This document shows, in pieces, positions 279 through 9,658 of a stretch of DNA of 11,964 nt (position 1 is the stretch's first letter; each line of letters begins with the position of its first letter). The DNA is from Waddliaceae bacterium. GTDB lineage: Bacteria > Chlamydiota > Chlamydiia > Chlamydiales > SLFE01. Where the stretch lies: the NCBI GenBank assembly GCA_963783885.1, contig CAWAPJ010000033.1:1-11964 (forward strand), written 5' to 3'. The position numbers were made by a program, and so were the translations under genes. The notes below the pieces were generated by a model. It ran no database searches. It had not been told where the DNA came from and was given only the letters and a program-made list of their open reading frames with translations.

Positions 279-1124
279 ATGCAGCCTGTGGCTTTTGGTT
301 GTTTCAAATTGACCGGTCCCAGCGCCCTAGCCGATGCGATAAAAAACGGTTACTCCATTCTCGATTTTGCATCAGCTTACAAGACCCATGAAGCATTTCC
401 GGAAGCGTTGGAAAAAACAACGGGCACCTTCAAGGGAGAGATTCACTCGAAAATCACTTTAGGGGAGATCAGGGACAAGGGGTGCGAAGAGGTAGTCGCC
501 TCTGTTCTTAGAGAGCTGCAAGTGGATGTTCTTGATGTCCTCTACCTGCACGCTCCGGACGCGATCTCTAAAGAAACCCTAAATCATCTGCAGGGATTAA
601 AAAAAGAGGGGAAGATCAGAAATGTCGGACTTTCCAATGTGGATTTATCTCAGCTGCAGGGGCTGGAGAAAAAGGGATATCTTCCCGATTATGTTCAGGT
701 CGAGATCAGCCCCAGGTGCTATGACGAACAATTGATTCAATACTGCCGGAGTAAACAAATAACTCTCGTGGGATACCGCCCCTTAGGAAAAGGCTGTCAT
801 TTACATCTTTCCGAACTCATTGATATCGCCCATGAACTCACATTCAAGCAAAAACGTGTTGTCACAACAGCGCAGGTCATCCATCGCTGGTGCCTTCAAA
901 AAGGAATCATCCCCCTGACAAAATCAAACAGCTCTCTTCACCAAAAAGAAAACAGAAACATCTATGACTTTGCGCTCTCTTCAGGTCAAATGGAGACTCT
1001 CAACAGCCTACAGGAAAAATATGGCCCAGAAAAAACTTGTAATTGGGCACAATTTGTCAAGCCGGAGGACCTGCAGGCGGCAAATACTTGGATGGGTATT
1101 GATGAAAAGACAAATTTCATTTGA
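279..1124 (+). CDS. Aldo/keto reductase family oxidoreductase
   Basis: 281 aa with AKR motifs: DFASAY (catalytic Asp/Tyr), SK, LDVLYLHAP, GKIRNVGLSN, QVEISP, YRPLG, AQVIHRW..QKG. GGAG RBS upstream of the ATG. Confidence 0.93.
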   Translation: MQPVAFGCFKLTGPSALADAIKNGYSILDFASAYKTHEAFPEALEKTTGTFKGEIHSKITLGEIRDKGCEEVVASVLRELQVDVLDVLYLHAPDAISKETLNHLQGLKKEGKIRNVGLSNVDLSQLQGLEKKGYLPDYVQVEISPRCYDEQLIQYCRSKQITLVGYRPLGKGCHLHLSELIDIAHELTFKQKRVVTTAQVIHRWCLQKGIIPLTKSNSSLHQKENRNIYDFALSSGQMETLNSLQEKYGPEKTCNWAQFVKPEDLQAANTWMGIDEKTNFI

Positions 1125-1926
1125 TTCGGAAGGACTCAAGCTGGTCGGCGATTTTTATTTCGTCGATAAAGAGGTCCCTACCCTTATACTCCTTCATGGC
1201 ATGAGCTTTTATTCTTTCGAGTATGAAAAGTTGGCGCCGCTTCTTTCCAAGCAGAACTTCAATGTTTTGGCTTTTGATTTTCGATGCCACGGGAACAGTG
1301 AAGGAAAAAGAGGGGATTGGAGATTAAAAGGGCTTGCCAAAGATGTCGCCTGCGCCCTCAATTTCCTTGAAGGACAAGTCAACGGTCCGATAGGCGTGTT
1401 CGGCAACAGCTTAGGGGCTGTTGTCGCCGTCTATGCAGCGGCCCGGGATTCGAGAATCCGATCTTTGGCCTGCTGCAATACAGCGACGAGTCCATCGAAG
1501 GCTTTGTATACACCATTTCGCAAAGTCCTTTTGTTTTTGATGAAAATCGTTTCAAAAGCTGTTCCCTTTACCCTAAATGTCAGTTATTTTATTCCCACTT
1601 CACTTGTTTTATCCGATAAAAGCCTTATCGAGCGTATCGACAATGACCAAAAGGTATTTGAGGCAAGAAGATTTACCGCCGACACCTATTCGGAAATGGT
1701 CCTTTGGGACGCGTCGGAAGAAATAAAAAAAACCGACATCCCTATTTTGGTCATACGCGGAACCAAAGACAGGCTTCAGCCTGCATCGCAGTCGGAGATG
1801 CTTTTTGCTGCGGCCGGAGGGCACAAGCAGCTCAGATTAATGGATGCCGGGCATGCGCCCACTTTGGAAAATGCCGAAGAGCTCTCTCAAATACTTAGCG
1901 AATGGTTTAAACACTTGTCTCAATAA
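1102..1926 (+). CDS. Alpha/beta-fold hydrolase (lysophospholipase/serine aminopeptidase S33-like)
   Basis: LLHG oxyanion motif, FDFRCHGNS, nucleophile elbow GNSLG, C-terminal GTKD and AGH. Start moved from 964 to ATG 1102 (MKRQISFDSEG), which overlaps the AKR end by 23 bp. Confidence 0.9.
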   Translation: MKRQISFDSEGLKLVGDFYFVDKEVPTLILLHGMSFYSFEYEKLAPLLSKQNFNVLAFDFRCHGNSEGKRGDWRLKGLAKDVACALNFLEGQVNGPIGVFGNSLGAVVAVYAAARDSRIRSLACCNTATSPSKALYTPFRKVLLFLMKIVSKAVPFTLNVSYFIPTSLVLSDKSLIERIDNDQKVFEARRFTADTYSEMVLWDASEEIKKTDIPILVIRGTKDRLQPASQSEMLFAAAGGHKQLRLMDAGHAPTLENAEELSQILSEWFKHLSQ

Positions 1927-1952: not shown

Positions 1953-2813
1953 ATGACGGCAAGGGTTTGGATTTTTTGTGCGCTGTTGATTTCTGCGGCC
2001 ATATTGTCTGCCGGTTCGGATGATGAGCCTCCAGAAATCGGGAATTTTTCTCTCCCCGCTTCCCAGCAGGTGGGTCCCTTTTACAGCTTTGGAGATTTGA
2101 TTATTGATAAAGGACAGGTTCAGTTTCTCTTTTATGTGCAGGATTTAAGAGGGAAAAACAGTTCGTACATCGATATATACCCGACACTTATCTACGGCGC
2201 TACTGATAACACCACCCTATCGTTTGCAGTTCCTGTTGCTTCTTACAAAGAGGAGAATTCTGCCTCATCGGGTTTTGAAGATCTCTATTTTCAGGTTGAG
2301 TATGCCTTTTATACGGCGAGCACAAAGACTTATGCTGATCAGGCCACAGTGGTCGCTTCTGTTTCTGTTCCTACAGGGTCTGCAGACGAAGATCCCATGA
2401 CAGGCTTCGGAAATCCGGGATATTTTTTGGGAATGACATTGAATCGAATGACAGTCGATTGGTTTGCATTTATGAATTACGGGGCCTTGTTCAATCCCAC
2501 ATTTAAATCTTTAGATATAGGGGATCAATATTATTACCAGTATGGACTTTCACGGGTGATCTCGACCTGGAAGGGGTGGCTTTTTGCCTGGCTTTTGGAG
2601 TTGGATGGGACTTACACCAAACAAAATCGTATCAACGGCGTTTTGGATCCCGATTCGGGAGGAAATGAGGTTTTGTTAATTCCCTCCCTTTGGATATCCT
2701 CTGAAAAGATTATCATACAATTCGGAGCGGGATATCCCATTTATCAGAATTTGAATGGCAATCAGCCGACCAGCCGATATCTTATTGCCGCAGATTTCTT
2801 ATGGACTTTTTAA
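1953..2813 (+). CDS. Exported protein, probable outer-membrane beta-barrel ('transporter'/MetA-pathway-like family)
   Basis: N-terminal signal peptide, aromatic-rich alternating beta-strand pattern, motifs SGFEDLYFQVEY, SVPTGS and DPDSGGNEVLLIPSL, and a C-terminal Phe (ADFLWTF). Confidence 0.7.
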   Translation: MTARVWIFCALLISAAILSAGSDDEPPEIGNFSLPASQQVGPFYSFGDLIIDKGQVQFLFYVQDLRGKNSSYIDIYPTLIYGATDNTTLSFAVPVASYKEENSASSGFEDLYFQVEYAFYTASTKTYADQATVVASVSVPTGSADEDPMTGFGNPGYFLGMTLNRMTVDWFAFMNYGALFNPTFKSLDIGDQYYYQYGLSRVISTWKGWLFAWLLELDGTYTKQNRINGVLDPDSGGNEVLLIPSLWISSEKIIIQFGAGYPIYQNLNGNQPTSRYLIAADFLWTF

Positions 2814-3360
2814 AATTTCCTTCGCCCATCATCTTGTATGCGACATTGCGGCTGTCGACATTGGTTTTTAAAAGAGACCCTTCATAAGGCTGCTCGTAGG
2901 TTTCAAAAAAAGTTCTCGGTTCTTCTTTTTTAAATCCTTGCCGGGTTGAATGGCAGAGCAGGCCGCTTGCCGCCAAGGCCACATGTCCTACTAGTTTTTC
3001 GCATTGTCTATTTTTGGCGAAGATAAGGTCCCCATCGCGGAGGCTGCGCGGGGTAACATAAAGAAGCTTCCATCGATGAATTTTCAACAGCATCCTTGGC
3101 ATGTCGCCGATATAGTAGACAGGAAGTTTTGCATGGGCGGCCTGCTGGATGATATAGGCGACTGCCGTTAAGCAGTCTGTCGTATGAGGCGCCTCTTCAA
3201 GAGTTGTCTTCTTTTTGTACTTGGATAAGTTGAGTTCTTTAAGGGATTGACAAAGTTTTTCCCTGTCAAACACAAGAGATTCGTTGCGAATAACAAATAT
3301 ATTGAATTCAGCTCCTAAAATTCTAGCAAAAGAGTAAAGACTTTTTGGTTTTTTTGGCAA
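2782..3360 (-). CDS. NlpC/P60-like (papain-fold) cysteine hydrolase; start codon uncertain
   Basis: DC63LTAVAY, GDLIF, GH126VAL and H137S match the NlpC/P60 Cys-His-His layout. The only in-frame start near the 5' end is TTG 3360. The 3' end overlaps the convergent gene by 32 bp. Confidence 0.7.
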   Translation of the reverse strand: MPKKPKSLYSFARILGAEFNIFVIRNESLVFDREKLCQSLKELNLSKYKKKTTLEEAPHTTDCLTAVAYIIQQAAHAKLPVYYIGDMPRMLLKIHRWKLLYVTPRSLRDGDLIFAKNRQCEKLVGHVALAASGLLCHSTRQGFKKEEPRTFFETYEQPYEGSLLKTNVDSRNVAYKMMGEGNFKKSIRNLRQ

Positions 3361-4081: not shown

Positions 4082-4140
4082 GGCTTGGTTGCACAATTCA
4101 CCACAGAGCCCACAAGAGCGCACAGAGAGAATATGAGAGA
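4082..4140 (+). repeat. Extended left inverted end: 18-bp IR plus three CACAGAG-type repeats
   Basis: CACAGAG 4102-4108, CACAAGAG 4111-4118, CACAGAG 4121-4127. Hand alignment to the revcomp of 4632-4689 gives 46/59 identities. Confidence 0.85.
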
Positions 4141-4146
4141 TTTGCT

Positions 4147-4484
4147 TTAAGCTGCTATTAATTCACTTTCAGGCATTCCCAGCCTTGTCATTATGTTTAG
4201 TGCTTCGCATTTTTCCCTTGATTCAGCCCTTTGAGTTTCCAGGGTTCTGCTTCTTAAATGATTTCACTAGAGTCAGGACAAACTGCTAAGTGGAGTTTTC
4301 TCCATGTTCGCCTTTTACTATAACCATGCTGCCTAACCTTCCACTCACCTTCTCCATATACTTTCAAACCGGTTGAATCGATTACAATATCGGTTACATT
4401 TTTTCCAGAAACCTTTTTCAATTCTTGTCCAAGCAATCTTGCTCTTCGACAAATTTGGGTATAAGAAGGGATGGGTAAACCCAC
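4147..4484 (-). pseudogene. IS5/IS903-group DDE transposase remnant (two fused fragments)
   Basis: 4484-4257 reads GLPIPSYTQICRRA...IDSTGLKVYGEGEWKVRQHG.SKRRTWRKLHLAV (first catalytic Asp region). 4257-4147, in another frame, reads LRSRTLETQRAESREKCEALNIMTRLGMPESELIAA* (typical C-terminus). The N-terminus and the rest of the catalytic core are absent. Confidence 0.93.
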
Positions 4485-4486
4485 AG

Positions 4487-4627
4487 ATAAAATCTGTGGC
4501 TAATCTCTTGCCTGTGCATGAAGCCCAACTTCTATCATATCTTAAGCATAATGGTGGTGGCAGGGGTTTGCTTATCAATTACAATGTAAAACTTCTTAAA
4601 AATGGGATTAGGCGACTAATCATTTAA
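4487..4627 (+). pseudogene. C-terminal fragment of a GxxExxY (PD-(D/E)xK nuclease-like) protein
   Basis: IKSVANLLPVHEAQLLSYLKHNGGGRGLLINYNVKLLKNGIRRLII* matches the family C-terminal pattern E-[LI]-K-[SA]-V...P-[IV]-H-E-A-Q-L-L-[TS]-Y-L-K...G-L-L-I-N-F-N...G-I-x-R. Confidence 0.88.
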
Positions 4628-4631
4628 TTCC

Positions 4632-4689
4632 TCTCCCATAATCTCTCAGTGAGCTCGGTGATCTCAGTGGTGATTTATGCAACAACGCC
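4632..4689 (-). repeat. Extended right inverted end: three CACnGAG repeats plus 18-bp IR
   Basis: CTCAGTG 4645-4651, CTCGGTG 4654-4660 and CTCAGTG 4663-4669 (9-bp period), followed by the IR at 4672-4689. Confidence 0.85.
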
Positions 4690-4698
4690 GTAACAAAA
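4690..4698. repeat. Target site duplication, right copy (GTAACAAAA)
   Basis: Identical to 4073-4081 and abuts the right IR. Confidence 0.92.
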
Positions 4699-7206: not shown

Positions 7207-9558
7207 TTACAGCTGTCTTAAGATTGCAGGATCATTTTTCAATGTAGAGCTGGCATATTCAAGGGCTTCAGAATCCTGTCTTGCGGCAGCTAAAACAACC
7301 TCCCTATCCCTTTTCAATTCATCACTTGCAAACATAAGAGCCAACCCATTTTCCCTTACGGCAGCTAAAACGACATCTTTGTCTGCTCGCAATATGGGGT
7401 CTGCGAATTCTAAATCCAATCCGCCGCCTATAAATATTCCACCAAATGAATCAGACCTGAAGCTTTTTTGAGTGACAGCAGCCAAGACAATATCTTTATC
7501 CTTCCTCAGTCTTGGACTAACATATTCTAGAGCTGCACTGGATTGTCTTACAACTTTCAAAACAAAGTCCCTATCATCTTTTAAACTATCGCTTGCATTC
7601 TTGAATGCAGGACCTGACAGCCTAATAGCTTCTAAGACAATTTCTTTGTCGTTTTTCAGAATTTCATTTGCATATTCAAGGGCATGAAAACTTTGTTGCA
7701 CGGCCTTCAAGACGACATTCCTATCAGCGCGTAATTCTGCGCTCGCAAAGCGAAAAGGGGTTTCCCAAATCTTGCATCTTGTTTGGAGTGCAGCCATAAC
7801 AATTACCTTGTCGCCTTTGAGCCTTTCGCTGGCATGTTGAAGAGCCCAGACGTTCTGTCGCACAGCTGCCAAAACTATTTTACTGTTGTTTTTAAGTCTA
7901 TCGCTAGCATATTGAAGCGATTCTCCATCATTGCAAACGGCTGCCAAAACAACATCTATGTTGTCTTTCAGTTTTTCGCTAGCATTCTTAAGCTCGCATC
8001 CACTCTGTCGCACGGCTGCCAAGACGACCTCTTTGTCATTTTTTAAAATATAGTTCGTATATAGAAGAAGCCGGCCAATGGGTATTCTTCGTGCCTGCAT
8101 TGCTGCAAGAACAATCTCTTTTTTGCATCTGAGCCTAAGGCTAGCATCTTGGAAGGCATTGCCATTTTTTCGAACAGCCGCCAAGACAACATCTCTGTCA
8201 TCTTTTAAACTGTCGCTAGCATATTGAAGCGCCAAACCTCGTTTTCGAACAGCCGCCAAGACAACACCCTTATCATCTCTAAACTCTTTGCTGGCAGCTG
8301 CAAGAGCATTTTTGCCGCAATAATAATAGTCGGATTGAACTGCCGCCAGGACAATGTCTCTTATCCCTTTGAGTCTTTCACTTGCATATTGAAACACGCC
8401 CCCGTTGATTTGCACGGCAGAAAGGATAAAAGCAAAGTCGTCTAAATATTGAGAGTTACCTGGTTTAAGGCTTGTATCCCATATTGTACCACATCTGTCA
8501 CTTTCCATGTATTTCAGGATTCCATTAACAGGAACAGCATTTCTTCTGTTTAATTTTGCCGAAAGAGCAGCTAATGCTACGTCAACGTCTTTTCTAAGGT
8601 CGATATTAATTTTTGGAAAATTCCAACCCGATTGTTTTGCTGCTGCGATGGCTATATCCTTATCAGCTTTTAATCTATTGCTCACAAAATGAAAATTGTG
8701 ACCAGCAGGGCTTTGCAATGCTTCCAAGGCAACTTCTTTGTTATCACGCAGTTTCTTGCTTGCAAATTCAAGAGCATATCCATTGCTTTTCAGGGCTGCT
8801 ATAACAAGGAGTTTATCATCTCTAAATTTTTCATTAGCATACTTAAGAGCATATCCATTTTGTTTTACCGCCGCAAAGACAATGTCCCGTTTTTCTTTCA
8901 ACGCATCGCTTGCATATTGAAGAGCAAGGCCCCATCGGCTTACTGCGGCCAAGATAATGTCGTGGTCATTCCTTAGTTTCTTTCCCGCATACTTTATATT
9001 TTTGCCGTTTTCCATTATGGCAGCAAGGACGATTTCTTTGTTGTCTGAAAATTTGCCTTGCTTTAAAAGATGTATTTTTATTTTGCGGATTTCAAAAAAA
9101 GTTTTGTATTCGAGGCTTTCATACTTATATTGGCTCTTCAAGAATTTCAAGTTTGAAAAGACTTTTAATTTATATTCATTGTAATTATCAGACAGAGCGG
9201 GAAGGCATATAGATTTGGCAAGATCCTTCCATAAGAAAGGATGATTGCTGAGCTGCTCGAAACGCCTGCAGACAAGAGGCAGTTTTATTAATGTTGTAAA
9301 ATCAACATATGAAAATATGTGCAACAAAAGTTCTTCAGCCAAGGAAGAAATGGTCCTTTTGATATTCCACCCCTTAAACTGAATAGCTATTTGGTTAAAT
9401 TCTTCTGATGAAAATAGGCGCGAGTATATTTCTCCGGAAGGTAAACGTGCGACGACACTGATCTGGCTTCCTTCAGGCGAACTATTATCGCATTGACGAT
9501 TTTCAGTGAATGTATAACATTCGGTGGAACTGATGATATTAAGATTATTGGGTTCCAT
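7207..9558 (-). CDS. F-box domain plus DUF4116 tandem-repeat protein; candidate effector
   Basis: F-box ISSLAEELLLHIFSYVDFTTLIKLPLVCRRFEQLSNHPFLW (9351-9229), then 22 repeats of ~25 aa (DKEIVLAAVxQNGxALQYASxxLK). Start placed at ATG 9558 rather than 9636 to leave a divergent intergenic region. Confidence 0.88.
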   Translation of the reverse strand: MEPNNLNIISSTECYTFTENRQCDNSSPEGSQISVVARLPSGEIYSRLFSSEEFNQIAIQFKGWNIKRTISSLAEELLLHIFSYVDFTTLIKLPLVCRRFEQLSNHPFLWKDLAKSICLPALSDNYNEYKLKVFSNLKFLKSQYKYESLEYKTFFEIRKIKIHLLKQGKFSDNKEIVLAAIMENGKNIKYAGKKLRNDHDIILAAVSRWGLALQYASDALKEKRDIVFAAVKQNGYALKYANEKFRDDKLLVIAALKSNGYALEFASKKLRDNKEVALEALQSPAGHNFHFVSNRLKADKDIAIAAAKQSGWNFPKINIDLRKDVDVALAALSAKLNRRNAVPVNGILKYMESDRCGTIWDTSLKPGNSQYLDDFAFILSAVQINGGVFQYASERLKGIRDIVLAAVQSDYYYCGKNALAAASKEFRDDKGVVLAAVRKRGLALQYASDSLKDDRDVVLAAVRKNGNAFQDASLRLRCKKEIVLAAMQARRIPIGRLLLYTNYILKNDKEVVLAAVRQSGCELKNASEKLKDNIDVVLAAVCNDGESLQYASDRLKNNSKIVLAAVRQNVWALQHASERLKGDKVIVMAALQTRCKIWETPFRFASAELRADRNVVLKAVQQSFHALEYANEILKNDKEIVLEAIRLSGPAFKNASDSLKDDRDFVLKVVRQSSAALEYVSPRLRKDKDIVLAAVTQKSFRSDSFGGIFIGGGLDLEFADPILRADKDVVLAAVRENGLALMFASDELKRDREVVLAAARQDSEALEYASSTLKNDPAILRQL
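7234..9045 (-). repeat. Coding tandem array of ~75-bp DUF4116-type repeats (22 units)
   Basis: Protein periodicity of 25 aa. An exact 25-bp DNA match TTTTCGAACAGCCGCCAAGACAACA occurs at 8167-8191 and 8242-8266, 75 bp apart. Confidence 0.9.
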
Positions 9559-9629
9559 ATAAATCTTTCGTTTGATATTAAATATTACATTAATAAGCAT
9601 AAAAACACAAGACTTTTTTCTGAAAAGAA

Positions 9630-9658
9630 TTGACATTTTCCTTAATTAATTACACAAT
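9630..9658 (+). promoter_or_regulatory. Putative sigma70-type promoter for the 9684 gene
   Basis: Perfect -35 TTGACA (9630-9635), 17-bp spacer, -10 CACAAT (9653-9658, 4/6), with an AT-rich upstream region. Confidence 0.55.

Follow-up and report, generated by a model that had tools for sequence, protein, structure and literature searches.

The stretch of DNA analysed here, hereafter the window, comprises 11,964 nucleotides of contig CAWAPJ010000033.1 from a Waddliaceae bacterium, and at positions 4082-4689 it contains a 608-bp element flanked by a perfect 9-bp target duplication, GTAACAAAA. This element is probably a twice-deleted copy of an IS903-group insertion sequence (IS; IS5 family) fused to a GxxExxY nuclease cassette, a unit in which a gene of the GxxExxY family is bracketed by inward-pointing arrays of a 7-base word, CACnGAG. 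In its present state, the window copy is a dead, non-autonomous, twice-deleted derivative of a 1564-bp IS, yet a clean insertion. Because arrays of this kind flank stand-alone GxxExxY genes in many phyla and are absent from all 25 plain chlamydial relatives of the IS and from IS903B itself, the heptamer arrays at its two ends are arms of the GxxExxY cassette rather than IS903 features or sites of the transposase.

Extended ends of an IS903-group element

An earlier note on this DNA had proposed, from a hand alignment, that the symmetry of the two ends extends over about 59 bp with 46 matching positions. The same figure, 46/59 identical with one 1-base gap, was obtained when the initial 59 bases were globally aligned with the final 58 in reverse complement, and a repeat search returned two adjoining inverted pairs, 4082-4113/4658-4689 (32 nt, 78%) and 4116-4140/4632-4656 (25 nt, 84%). 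Past the 18-bp repeat, 32 of 41 positions are identical, whereas 4919 random 40-mers of the window averaged 19.3 and never exceeded 29. Each end consists, from the outside inward, of an 18-bp GGC..GTTGC repeat, the dinucleotide AC, three CACnGAG words and a 13-bp tail that follows the third word and is conserved at both ends (AGAwTATGrGAGA). The description of three inward heptamers per end with a 9-bp period, also put forward in the note, holds in full for the right end (steps of 9 and 9). At the left end it needs correction, for the middle word (CACAAGAG) carries one extra base, so that the steps are 9 and 10 and the arm is composed of two strict heptamers and one 8-mer.

The genome from which the window comes (G000; 2.16 Mb, 46 contigs, 89% complete) contains 36 triple arrays, and none was found in any of 10 genomes simulated with a second-order Markov model. 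When these arrays were sorted by the presence of an adjacent IS repeat, 32 of the 36 abutted one, and the other four formed two inverted triple-array pairs without an IS903 repeat (C28:64021-64141 and C40:1138-1236, or L178:1522-1642 and L179:1138-1236 in locus coordinates). Both pairs are gene-less and intergenic, fold as hairpins (z -5.3 and -7.6), and hold the only arrays of G000 that lie off IS ends.

Nine full-length copies of the parent element, 1561-1564 bp long and 98.7-100% identical, are present in G000. In an intact example (G000:C8:142412-143975), a gene for a 314-aa transposase occupies element positions 69-1010 on the minus strand and is followed by an 84-bp intergenic region and by a divergent, rightward gene for a 135-aa GxxExxY protein (positions 1095-1499); the two genes are enclosed at both ends by the inverted repeat and an arm made up of three words and the tail. 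All 17 GxxExxY matches returned by tblastn in G000 lie inside copies of this IS, and the same search found no stand-alone GxxExxY gene in the genome.

The transposase scores 287.5 bits against the IS5-family model NF033579 (cut-off 140). A protein-level search of plasmids aligned 99% of its length with annotated IS903B transposases at 44% identity, and E. coli genomes gave no match when the transposase gene was used as a nucleotide query. IS903B, as represented by a plasmid record, is 1056 bp long with repeats of 18-19 bp (GGCTTTGTTGAATAAATC), and the right repeat of the present element agrees with this repeat at 16 of the outer 18 positions. The two elements are alike in having a DDE transposase of ~310 aa, 18-bp repeats starting GGC..TTGTTG and a 9-bp target duplication, and they differ in length (1564 versus 1056 bp) and in the second, divergent gene, GxxExxY, which only the present element has. 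Past the 18-19-bp repeat, the ends of IS903B show no similarity to one another and no words; the ends of the present element match over ~59 bp because each repeat is followed by a 39-bp arm. The transposase, the ~18-bp repeats and the 9-bp duplication are thus those of the IS903 group of the IS5 family, but the ~1.05-kb single-gene layout of that group is lacking, and the length of 1564 bp and the two divergent genes mark the element as a passenger-carrying IS903-group variant rather than a simple member.

Of the 14 copies that have both ends, 10 are flanked by a perfect 9-bp duplication, among them the window copy and a derivative of 378 bp (C16); those without one are C32, C6, C8:142412 and C1:101558, the last with a rearranged tip. 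Because the insertions, among them the dead ones of 608 and 378 bp, have their 9-bp duplications directly outside the tips, it is clear that the element transposes by means of a DDE transposase acting at the outer GGC...GTTGC tips. It has been active recently, and its non-autonomous derivatives have been mobilised in trans. A related genome, G301, in which the flanking genes show 84-86% identity, lacks the element in the space between the orthologous genes, an absence established at the level of these genes since the intergenic DNA is too diverged for a base-precise empty site; at least 18 copies lie elsewhere in G301. The IS copies of G000 and G301 (the genome of locus L031) are 92-100% identical, as compared with 84-86% for the flanking host genes, which suggests that the IS passed recently from one of the two lineages to the other.

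Two further kinds of IS end occur in G000. A degenerate 2560-bp copy (G000:C6:39949-42508) has a chimeric left end, in which a left-type repeat tip is followed by the word set of the right arm, so conversion between the two ends of an element does take place. A second IS903-like family (G000:C19:3470-4640 and G000:C43:22650-23040) has a transposase 48% identical to that of the present element, a repeat beginning GGCCTTGTTCTCTAATCGCGC and no words; at both C19:3478 and C1:101558, its end is joined in the same chimeric junction to a truncated tip of the IS that carries GxxExxY.

Word arrays as arms of the GxxExxY cassette

According to the earlier note, inverted CACnGAG arrays commonly flank stand-alone GxxExxY genes. 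This was examined in the best 80 of 551 confirmed loci from a collection of species-representative genomes, covering Chlamydiota, Chloroflexota, Acidobacteriota, Bacteroidota, Planctomycetota, Verrucomicrobiota, Proteobacteria and methanogenic archaea, with five of the 80 loci (L034-L038) being copies within one genome. The statement was borne out, and the arrays are enriched beside GxxExxY genes in this sample: inward words reach 8.98/kb around the gene start (180 bp) and 12.47/kb past the stop (160 bp), compared with 0.33/kb upstream and 0.29/kb downstream at distances of more than 300 bp, an enrichment of 27- to 43-fold. At least two inward words were present on both sides in 35 of the 80 loci and on one side only in 19, and the outward arrangement was seen in three; by eye, many of the remaining loci have variant words (CGCCGAG, CACAAAG, CACGAAG) or other periods (8, 10, 11).

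Within the Chlamydiota, TIGR04256, the GxxExxY family model, is present in 102 of a sample of 300 genomes. The 30 chlamydial GxxExxY loci returned have at least two strict words on both sides in 13 cases, on one side in 7 and on neither in 10, and only three of the 30 have an IS903-type repeat beside an arm. An IS903-type transposase is adjacent in 6 of the 111 GxxExxY loci examined, and all six are chlamydial. The stand-alone chlamydial cassettes resemble the element in protein family, 7-base word, inward polarity and 9-base period, and in two of them, L032 and L034, the words, period, tail and polarity all match. The right arm directly follows the GxxExxY gene, as it does in stand-alone cassettes; the left arm stands on the far side of the transposase gene, not directly upstream of GxxExxY. 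The element thus differs from a stand-alone cassette in that its arms bracket the transposase gene as well and are bounded by IS903-type repeats, and in that its mobility is DDE transposition with 9-bp duplications. It was considered whether the IS still contains, ahead of its GxxExxY gene, the remains of an inner left arm, as the N-terminal leader THTTEEANQKRND is loosely like the translated arm of stand-alone cassettes, TTELTEPTERREND; the idea was dropped since the DNA alignment was unconvincing.

The converse question, whether IS903-group elements without GxxExxY carry the arrays, was raised in the note as an outcome that would refute its reading, and for the loci examined the answer is negative. 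Relatives of the transposase occur in 77 of 300 Chlamydiota genomes, and 30 transposase loci were returned from this set. None of the 25 plain loci among them has even a two-word array, including those of the nearest sisters, L115 and L120, with 54-59% transposase identity. Eighteen of the 25 could be delimited; they are 1040-1229 bp long and have GGCnTTGTTGC-type repeats and, by eye, no words. By contrast with this 0/25, five hybrid IS903-like loci combine arrays with a GxxExxY gene or a relic of one. The interpretation of the element as a hybrid, which the note had advanced, is supported by this distribution, and so is the proposal that the arrays at the transposase end are integral to the element, as in every hybrid lineage examined an array adjoins each of the two inverted repeats and the word cores show conservation.

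The hybrids span a considerable range of divergence. Relative to the own element of the window genome (L111), the transposase is 92% identical in L112 and 68% identical in L113. L116, likewise at 68%, is a deletion derivative that keeps the last GxxExxY residues and has period-8 arrays at both ends, and L131 (genome G126), at 55%, has its repeat separated from the stop of the transposase gene by three CACCGAG words, in a locus that covers only the transposase end with its array. The N-terminus of the L131 transposase was lost to an inserted gene (L131:1000-1500), the end of which encodes, by eye, a CxxC...CxxC zinc-ribbon, presumably of the kind found in TnpB-type proteins. In addition, genome G126 has two 248-bp copies of a MITE, or miniature inverted-repeat transposable element (L180:1470-1720 and L191:1472-1720), each with a 9-bp target duplication and each laid out as an inverted repeat with three CACCGAG words, a C-terminal GxxExxY relic, and three CACCGAG words with the second inverted repeat.

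Four hybrids had enough sequence for a 27-row tree of transposases, in which they make up a single clade (SH-aLRT, the Shimodaira-Hasegawa-like approximate likelihood ratio test, 99) that is nested among plain elements and needs a single change of state. When L131 is added (30 rows), it groups with the plain elements L120 and L139 (support 94), just outside the hybrid clade, and a single transposase clade of all five hybrids is not rejected by the approximately unbiased (AU) test (p 0.25). In a GxxExxY tree of 99 rows, five IS-borne genes fall inside a clade of 25 (support 95), interleaved with its other members, 19 stand-alone chlamydial cassettes and one verrucomicrobial one. Monophyly of the five IS-borne genes is rejected (AU p 0.017), but not once L169 is left out (p 0.21). 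The genus of L169 is also that of L131, and the CACCGAG words of these two are shared with the stand-alone neighbours L142, L145 and L150. Between the own element and L112, the proportions of synonymous and non-synonymous differences (pS and pN) are 0.335 and 0.034 in the transposase and 0.73 and 0.076 in GxxExxY, and nucleotide identity falls from ~90% to ~76% at the gene boundary. Taken together, the trees and the contrast in pS point to a cassette that came from the chlamydial cassette pool and was captured at least once, with the GxxExxY module exchanged since; in view of the grouping of the sequences, there was perhaps a second capture.

Some features of stand-alone cassettes were noted in passing. 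The five copies in one genome (L034-L038, ~2390-3000) have more than 100 bp of identical flank on each side, so the cassette there is part of a larger repeat. In L034 and L039, an open reading frame (ORF) runs in frame through the left arm (TTELTEPTE...), which fits the 9-base period, equal to three codons. In five acidobacterial genomes (L083, L086, L090, L094 and L102, ~2400-3000), a cassette with period-8 CACGGAG arms is found, by eye, at a common position, with the same conserved gene pair on either side; the upstream gene ends ...GVLQT and the downstream one starts ...KLVECPRDAWQG.

Anatomy of the window copy

The window copy can be laid over the full element in three blocks (Table 1): 4082-4265 corresponds to element positions 1-184, 4256-4494 to 530-768, and the remainder to 1360-1564. 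The second deletion removed the N-terminus of the transposase, the divergent intergenic and promoter region and GxxExxY residues 1-88. Its junction is also present in the C28 and C32 copies, so this deletion is older than the spread of the three; the first is private to the window copy. Searches with Pfam matched the 4251..4496 piece to DDE_Tnp_1_5 (1.8e-7) and DDE_Tnp_1 (3.6e-6), and the 4484..4627 relic to PDDEXK_3 (1.4e-8, profile positions 74-116 of 117). With intact termini and target duplication, no working transposase and an autonomous partner in the genome, the copy has the properties of a MITE or other non-autonomous element, but it is larger than most MITEs, keeps recognisable pseudogene pieces of both genes and has one deletion junction in common with two other copies. 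No Rfam family was found in the window or in one full-length copy, and promoter-like and terminator-like sites were no more frequent than expected by chance.

Table 1. Components of the 608-bp element and its target duplication, in window positions
Feature	Position	Strand	Remark
Left target duplication copy, GTAACAAAA	4073..4081	.	9 bases before the element equal 9 bases after
Left IS903-type terminal inverted repeat, 18 bp, GGCTTGGTTGCACAATTC, and 2-bp AC linker	4082..4101	+	
Left arm, three inward words: CACAGAG-CC-CACAAGAG-CG-CACAGAG	4102..4127	+	
Left arm tail, AGAATATGAGAGA	4128..4140	+	Conserved between the ends
Transposase pseudogene piece, residues 277-314 (C-terminus)	4150..4263	-	92% identity to full-length; tblastn, frame
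First internal deletion junction	4256..4265	.	Full-length positions 185-529 gone
Transposase pseudogene piece, residues 81-162	4251..4496	-	Includes first D of DDE motif region
Second internal deletion junction, 10-bp microhomology AGATAAAATC	4485..4494	.	Full-length positions 769-1359 gone
GxxExxY C-terminal relic, residues 89-135	4484..4627	+	96% identity; stop codon included
Right arm tail, inward reading AGATTATGGGAGA	4632..4644	-	
Right arm, three inward words: CACTGAG-AT-CACCGAG-CT-CACTGAG	4645..4669	-	
Right IS903-type terminal inverted repeat, inward GGCGTTGTTGCATAAATC, and AC linker	4670..4689	-	
Right target duplication copy	4690..4698	.	

Elsewhere in the window, an 809-aa ORF (7207-9636, minus strand) combines an F-box at its N-terminus with 17 DUF4116 repeats (Pfam E 2.3e-181); such eukaryote-like architecture is typical of bacteria associated with amoebae. 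An aldo/keto reductase ORF (279-1124, plus strand) and an alpha/beta hydrolase ORF (964-1926, plus strand) overlap by 161 bp in different frames; the start of the hydrolase is possibly miscalled, or there is a frameshift.

Possible recognition of the words by GxxExxY

GxxExxY (TIGR04256 / PF13366) is a very large family of bacteria and archaea that has no known function. A 2012 survey of PD-(D/E)XK proteins, in its accessible part, lists the function of the family as 'Unknown' and includes viruses in its distribution (PMC3424549), and the available portion of another paper mentions GxxExxY without any function (PMC8934634). The passenger of the IS scores 148 bits against TIGR04256, the cut-off of which is 35. 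Across 67 homologues, G36, E39 and Y42, the residues of the name motif, are invariant, as are D79 and K91, and E89 is conserved in at least 90%; conservation of E39, D79, E89 and K91 indicates a complete PD-(D/E)xK active site with the E-D-E-K motif intact. With a confident AlphaFold model (predicted local distance difference test, pLDDT, 92.3) as the query, the structural neighbours are almost all restriction-endonuclease-like nucleases: the best Foldseek match is Cas4 SSO0001 (E 4.4e-3), followed by Hjc resolvases, and in VIA-align the CinB nuclease domain and R.SwaI reach Z 7.6, with Cas4, BglII and Hjc at Z 6-7. These matches of a predicted model are middling and support the nuclease fold class, nothing more specific; a sequence search of solved structures returned no relative of the passenger, the best E-value being 0.38. 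Between the two subfamilies of the element in G000, the GxxExxY genes differ at 17 synonymous and 5-7 non-synonymous positions (synonymous and non-synonymous rates, dS and dN, 0.21 and 0.016-0.024), in a comparison that, together with that of the own element and L112, is the only one free of saturation at synonymous sites. By this measure, the GxxExxY gene is under purifying selection inside the IS.

The words themselves differ in conservation from the bases between them. When the two arms of the window copy are compared, all 18 CAC/GAG core positions agree apart from one inserted base, as against one of the seven free positions (fourth bases and spacers). The two G000 subfamilies, in which the transposase pseudogene is ~83% identical, differ by one spacer base in each arm, by one further base in the right tail and at four positions of the 20-bp left repeat. 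Among lineages with both ends in the locus (that of L112 covers the left end only), the outer two words are intact at both ends in the own element, L113, L116, L047 and the G126 MITEs. The two arms of L113, L047 and L116 have lineage-specific features in common, either a degenerate middle word in both or a period of 8 in both. Judged from these alignments, the contrast between cores and spacers fits recognition of the words better than arm-to-arm pairing.

On this basis, the words would be recognition sites for the element's own GxxExxY protein, by which they would be bound and perhaps cut. Since both arms retain the CAC/GAG cores but differ in the fourth base and in the spacers, and since 1.45 kb separates one arm from the other, the chances seem about equal for and against the view that this protein recognizes the arrays word by word, not through pairing of one arm with the other. 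With less confidence, it may be supposed that the cassette rides on the IS to gain mobility, that the position of the arms just inside the transposase ends would let both sets of termini enclose the same DNA, and that the arms might serve as break or homology points in the exchange of GxxExxY modules between elements.

Several points weigh against a hybrid whose words are read by its own passenger. For a geometry in which the arms bracket the transposase gene as well, the routes of origin considered (insertion plus inversion, two insertions plus deletions, and end-to-end conversion) are unsupported beyond the chimeric C6 end. Several lineages (the own element in its left arm, L113, L047 and L033) have a degenerate middle word, and the first left word of L112 has an extra base. 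Conservation of the cores is in part conditioned on the motif-based detection of arrays, and end-to-end gene conversion, as in the C6 copy, could mimic selection within a genome; both effects inflate the pattern of core conservation. Moreover, the co-occurrence of words and gene is equally expected from plain co-inheritance, and all evidence of mobility in G000 points to the transposase, none of it to activity of the arms in the IS context.

A more elaborate version of the recognition hypothesis is offered only tentatively, as a possibility on the unlikely side. It describes a two-layer mobile unit in which a PD-(D/E)xK repeat-nuclease system, similar in layout to the REPIN/RAYT systems described below, sits concentrically inside IS903 ends; selection would keep the words because the element's own nuclease acts on them in duplex DNA, even across the 1.45 kb between the arms, and fusion may have happened more than once. 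Repeated fusion is suggested by a second hybrid lineage, that with CACCGAG words, whose transposase groups with plain elements and whose GxxExxY gene groups with stand-alone cassettes of the CACCGAG type. The nuclease might, in such a unit, pair the ends, or nick them and so give rise to gene conversion and the swapping of GxxExxY modules.

It is rather doubtful that the arms act only by mutual pairing, as a hairpin formed in single-stranded DNA or in RNA, in the manner of repetitive extragenic palindromes (REP) and their doublets (REPIN) or of the stems of intervening sequences in ribosomal RNA, and that in the IS they are functionless relics kept alike by gene conversion. The strong hairpins of the two gene-less, repeat-less arm pairs would be well accounted for in this manner, as would the perfectly complementary arms of many stand-alone cassettes (for example, L092 and L110) and the end-to-end conversion seen in the C6 copy. 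The arms of the IS, however, are separated by 1.45 kb and mismatched at six of the seven free positions with all cores kept, and these cores persist across lineages whose transposases are just 55-68% identical, far beyond the reach of conversion within a genome. In stand-alone cassettes, 104 of 173 free positions agree between the arms, a weak indication against pairing because the count is conditioned on intact cores.

Multiple end-binding sites are a feature of Mu and Tn7, and the arrays could by analogy be extra sub-terminal binding sites of the transposase, native to the IS lineage, with the likeness to GxxExxY flanks being secondary. At each end of every hybrid lineage, the arrays do sit on the inner side of the inverted repeat at a distance of 2-12 bp, and they are kept by all transposed derivatives (the window copy, C16 and the two 248-bp G126 MITEs). 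Their retention in MITEs nevertheless says little, since internal deletions rarely reach sites within 60 bp of the tip. The same arrays flank GxxExxY genes that have no IS903-type transposase beside them, and neither the 25 plain chlamydial relatives nor IS903B, which has only its 18-19-bp repeat, carry them; this explanation is accordingly improbable. That the extended symmetry is a chance or low-complexity likeness beside an ordinary 18-bp repeat, a suspicion to which the short and purine-rich words lend themselves, has next to no probability, being refuted by the number of triple arrays relative to the simulated genomes, by an identity beyond the maximum of the random 40-mers and by the recurrence of the arrays at both ends of every copy.

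Known systems offer partial parallels to the element. A 'transporter' IS, the term for insertion sequences with passenger genes in PMC3129680, is likewise an otherwise ordinary IS with a gene unrelated to transposition inside its repeats; in the present element, unlike that IS, the passenger is the core of a repeat-bounded cassette, the arms stand at the IS termini, and the two sets of termini are concentric. REPINs and their REP-associated tyrosine transposases (RAYT), so far as the available part of PMC3116915 describes them, are similar in layout only, a single small gene being flanked by inverted short repeats. The enzyme there is an HUH (Y1) tyrosine transposase, whereas GxxExxY has a predicted PD-(D/E)xK fold; the repeat there is one palindrome, whereas each GxxExxY arm is a phased array of 7-base words; and the GxxExxY gene is multi-copy in G000, riding a DDE IS. 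Gene-less inverted hairpin doublets, abundant in REPIN systems, are represented in G000 by just the two repeat-less doublets. No published description of the GxxExxY cassette or of the IS903 hybrid was found in the full-text literature, subscription journals and ISfinder lying outside the search.

The hybrid origin explains why a relative of IS903 has inverted ends of 59 bp instead of 18 bp, and to the earlier idea of a hybrid the present analysis adds the test against plain relatives, a second lineage, the exchange of modules and the contrast between cores and spacers. For the biology of insertion sequences, the element offers a clear example of the nesting of selfish elements, one within another, with nearly coincident termini. 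For the orphan GxxExxY family, the hybrid IS provides a handle: it amounts to a natural experiment in which the arms of the cassette are set 1.45 kb apart beside the well-understood ends of a transposase, in a recently active, multi-copy element with dead derivatives and swapped modules available for comparison. On such small, defined DNA, two questions become testable, namely whether the GxxExxY protein binds or cuts the words, and whether the arms need to pair.

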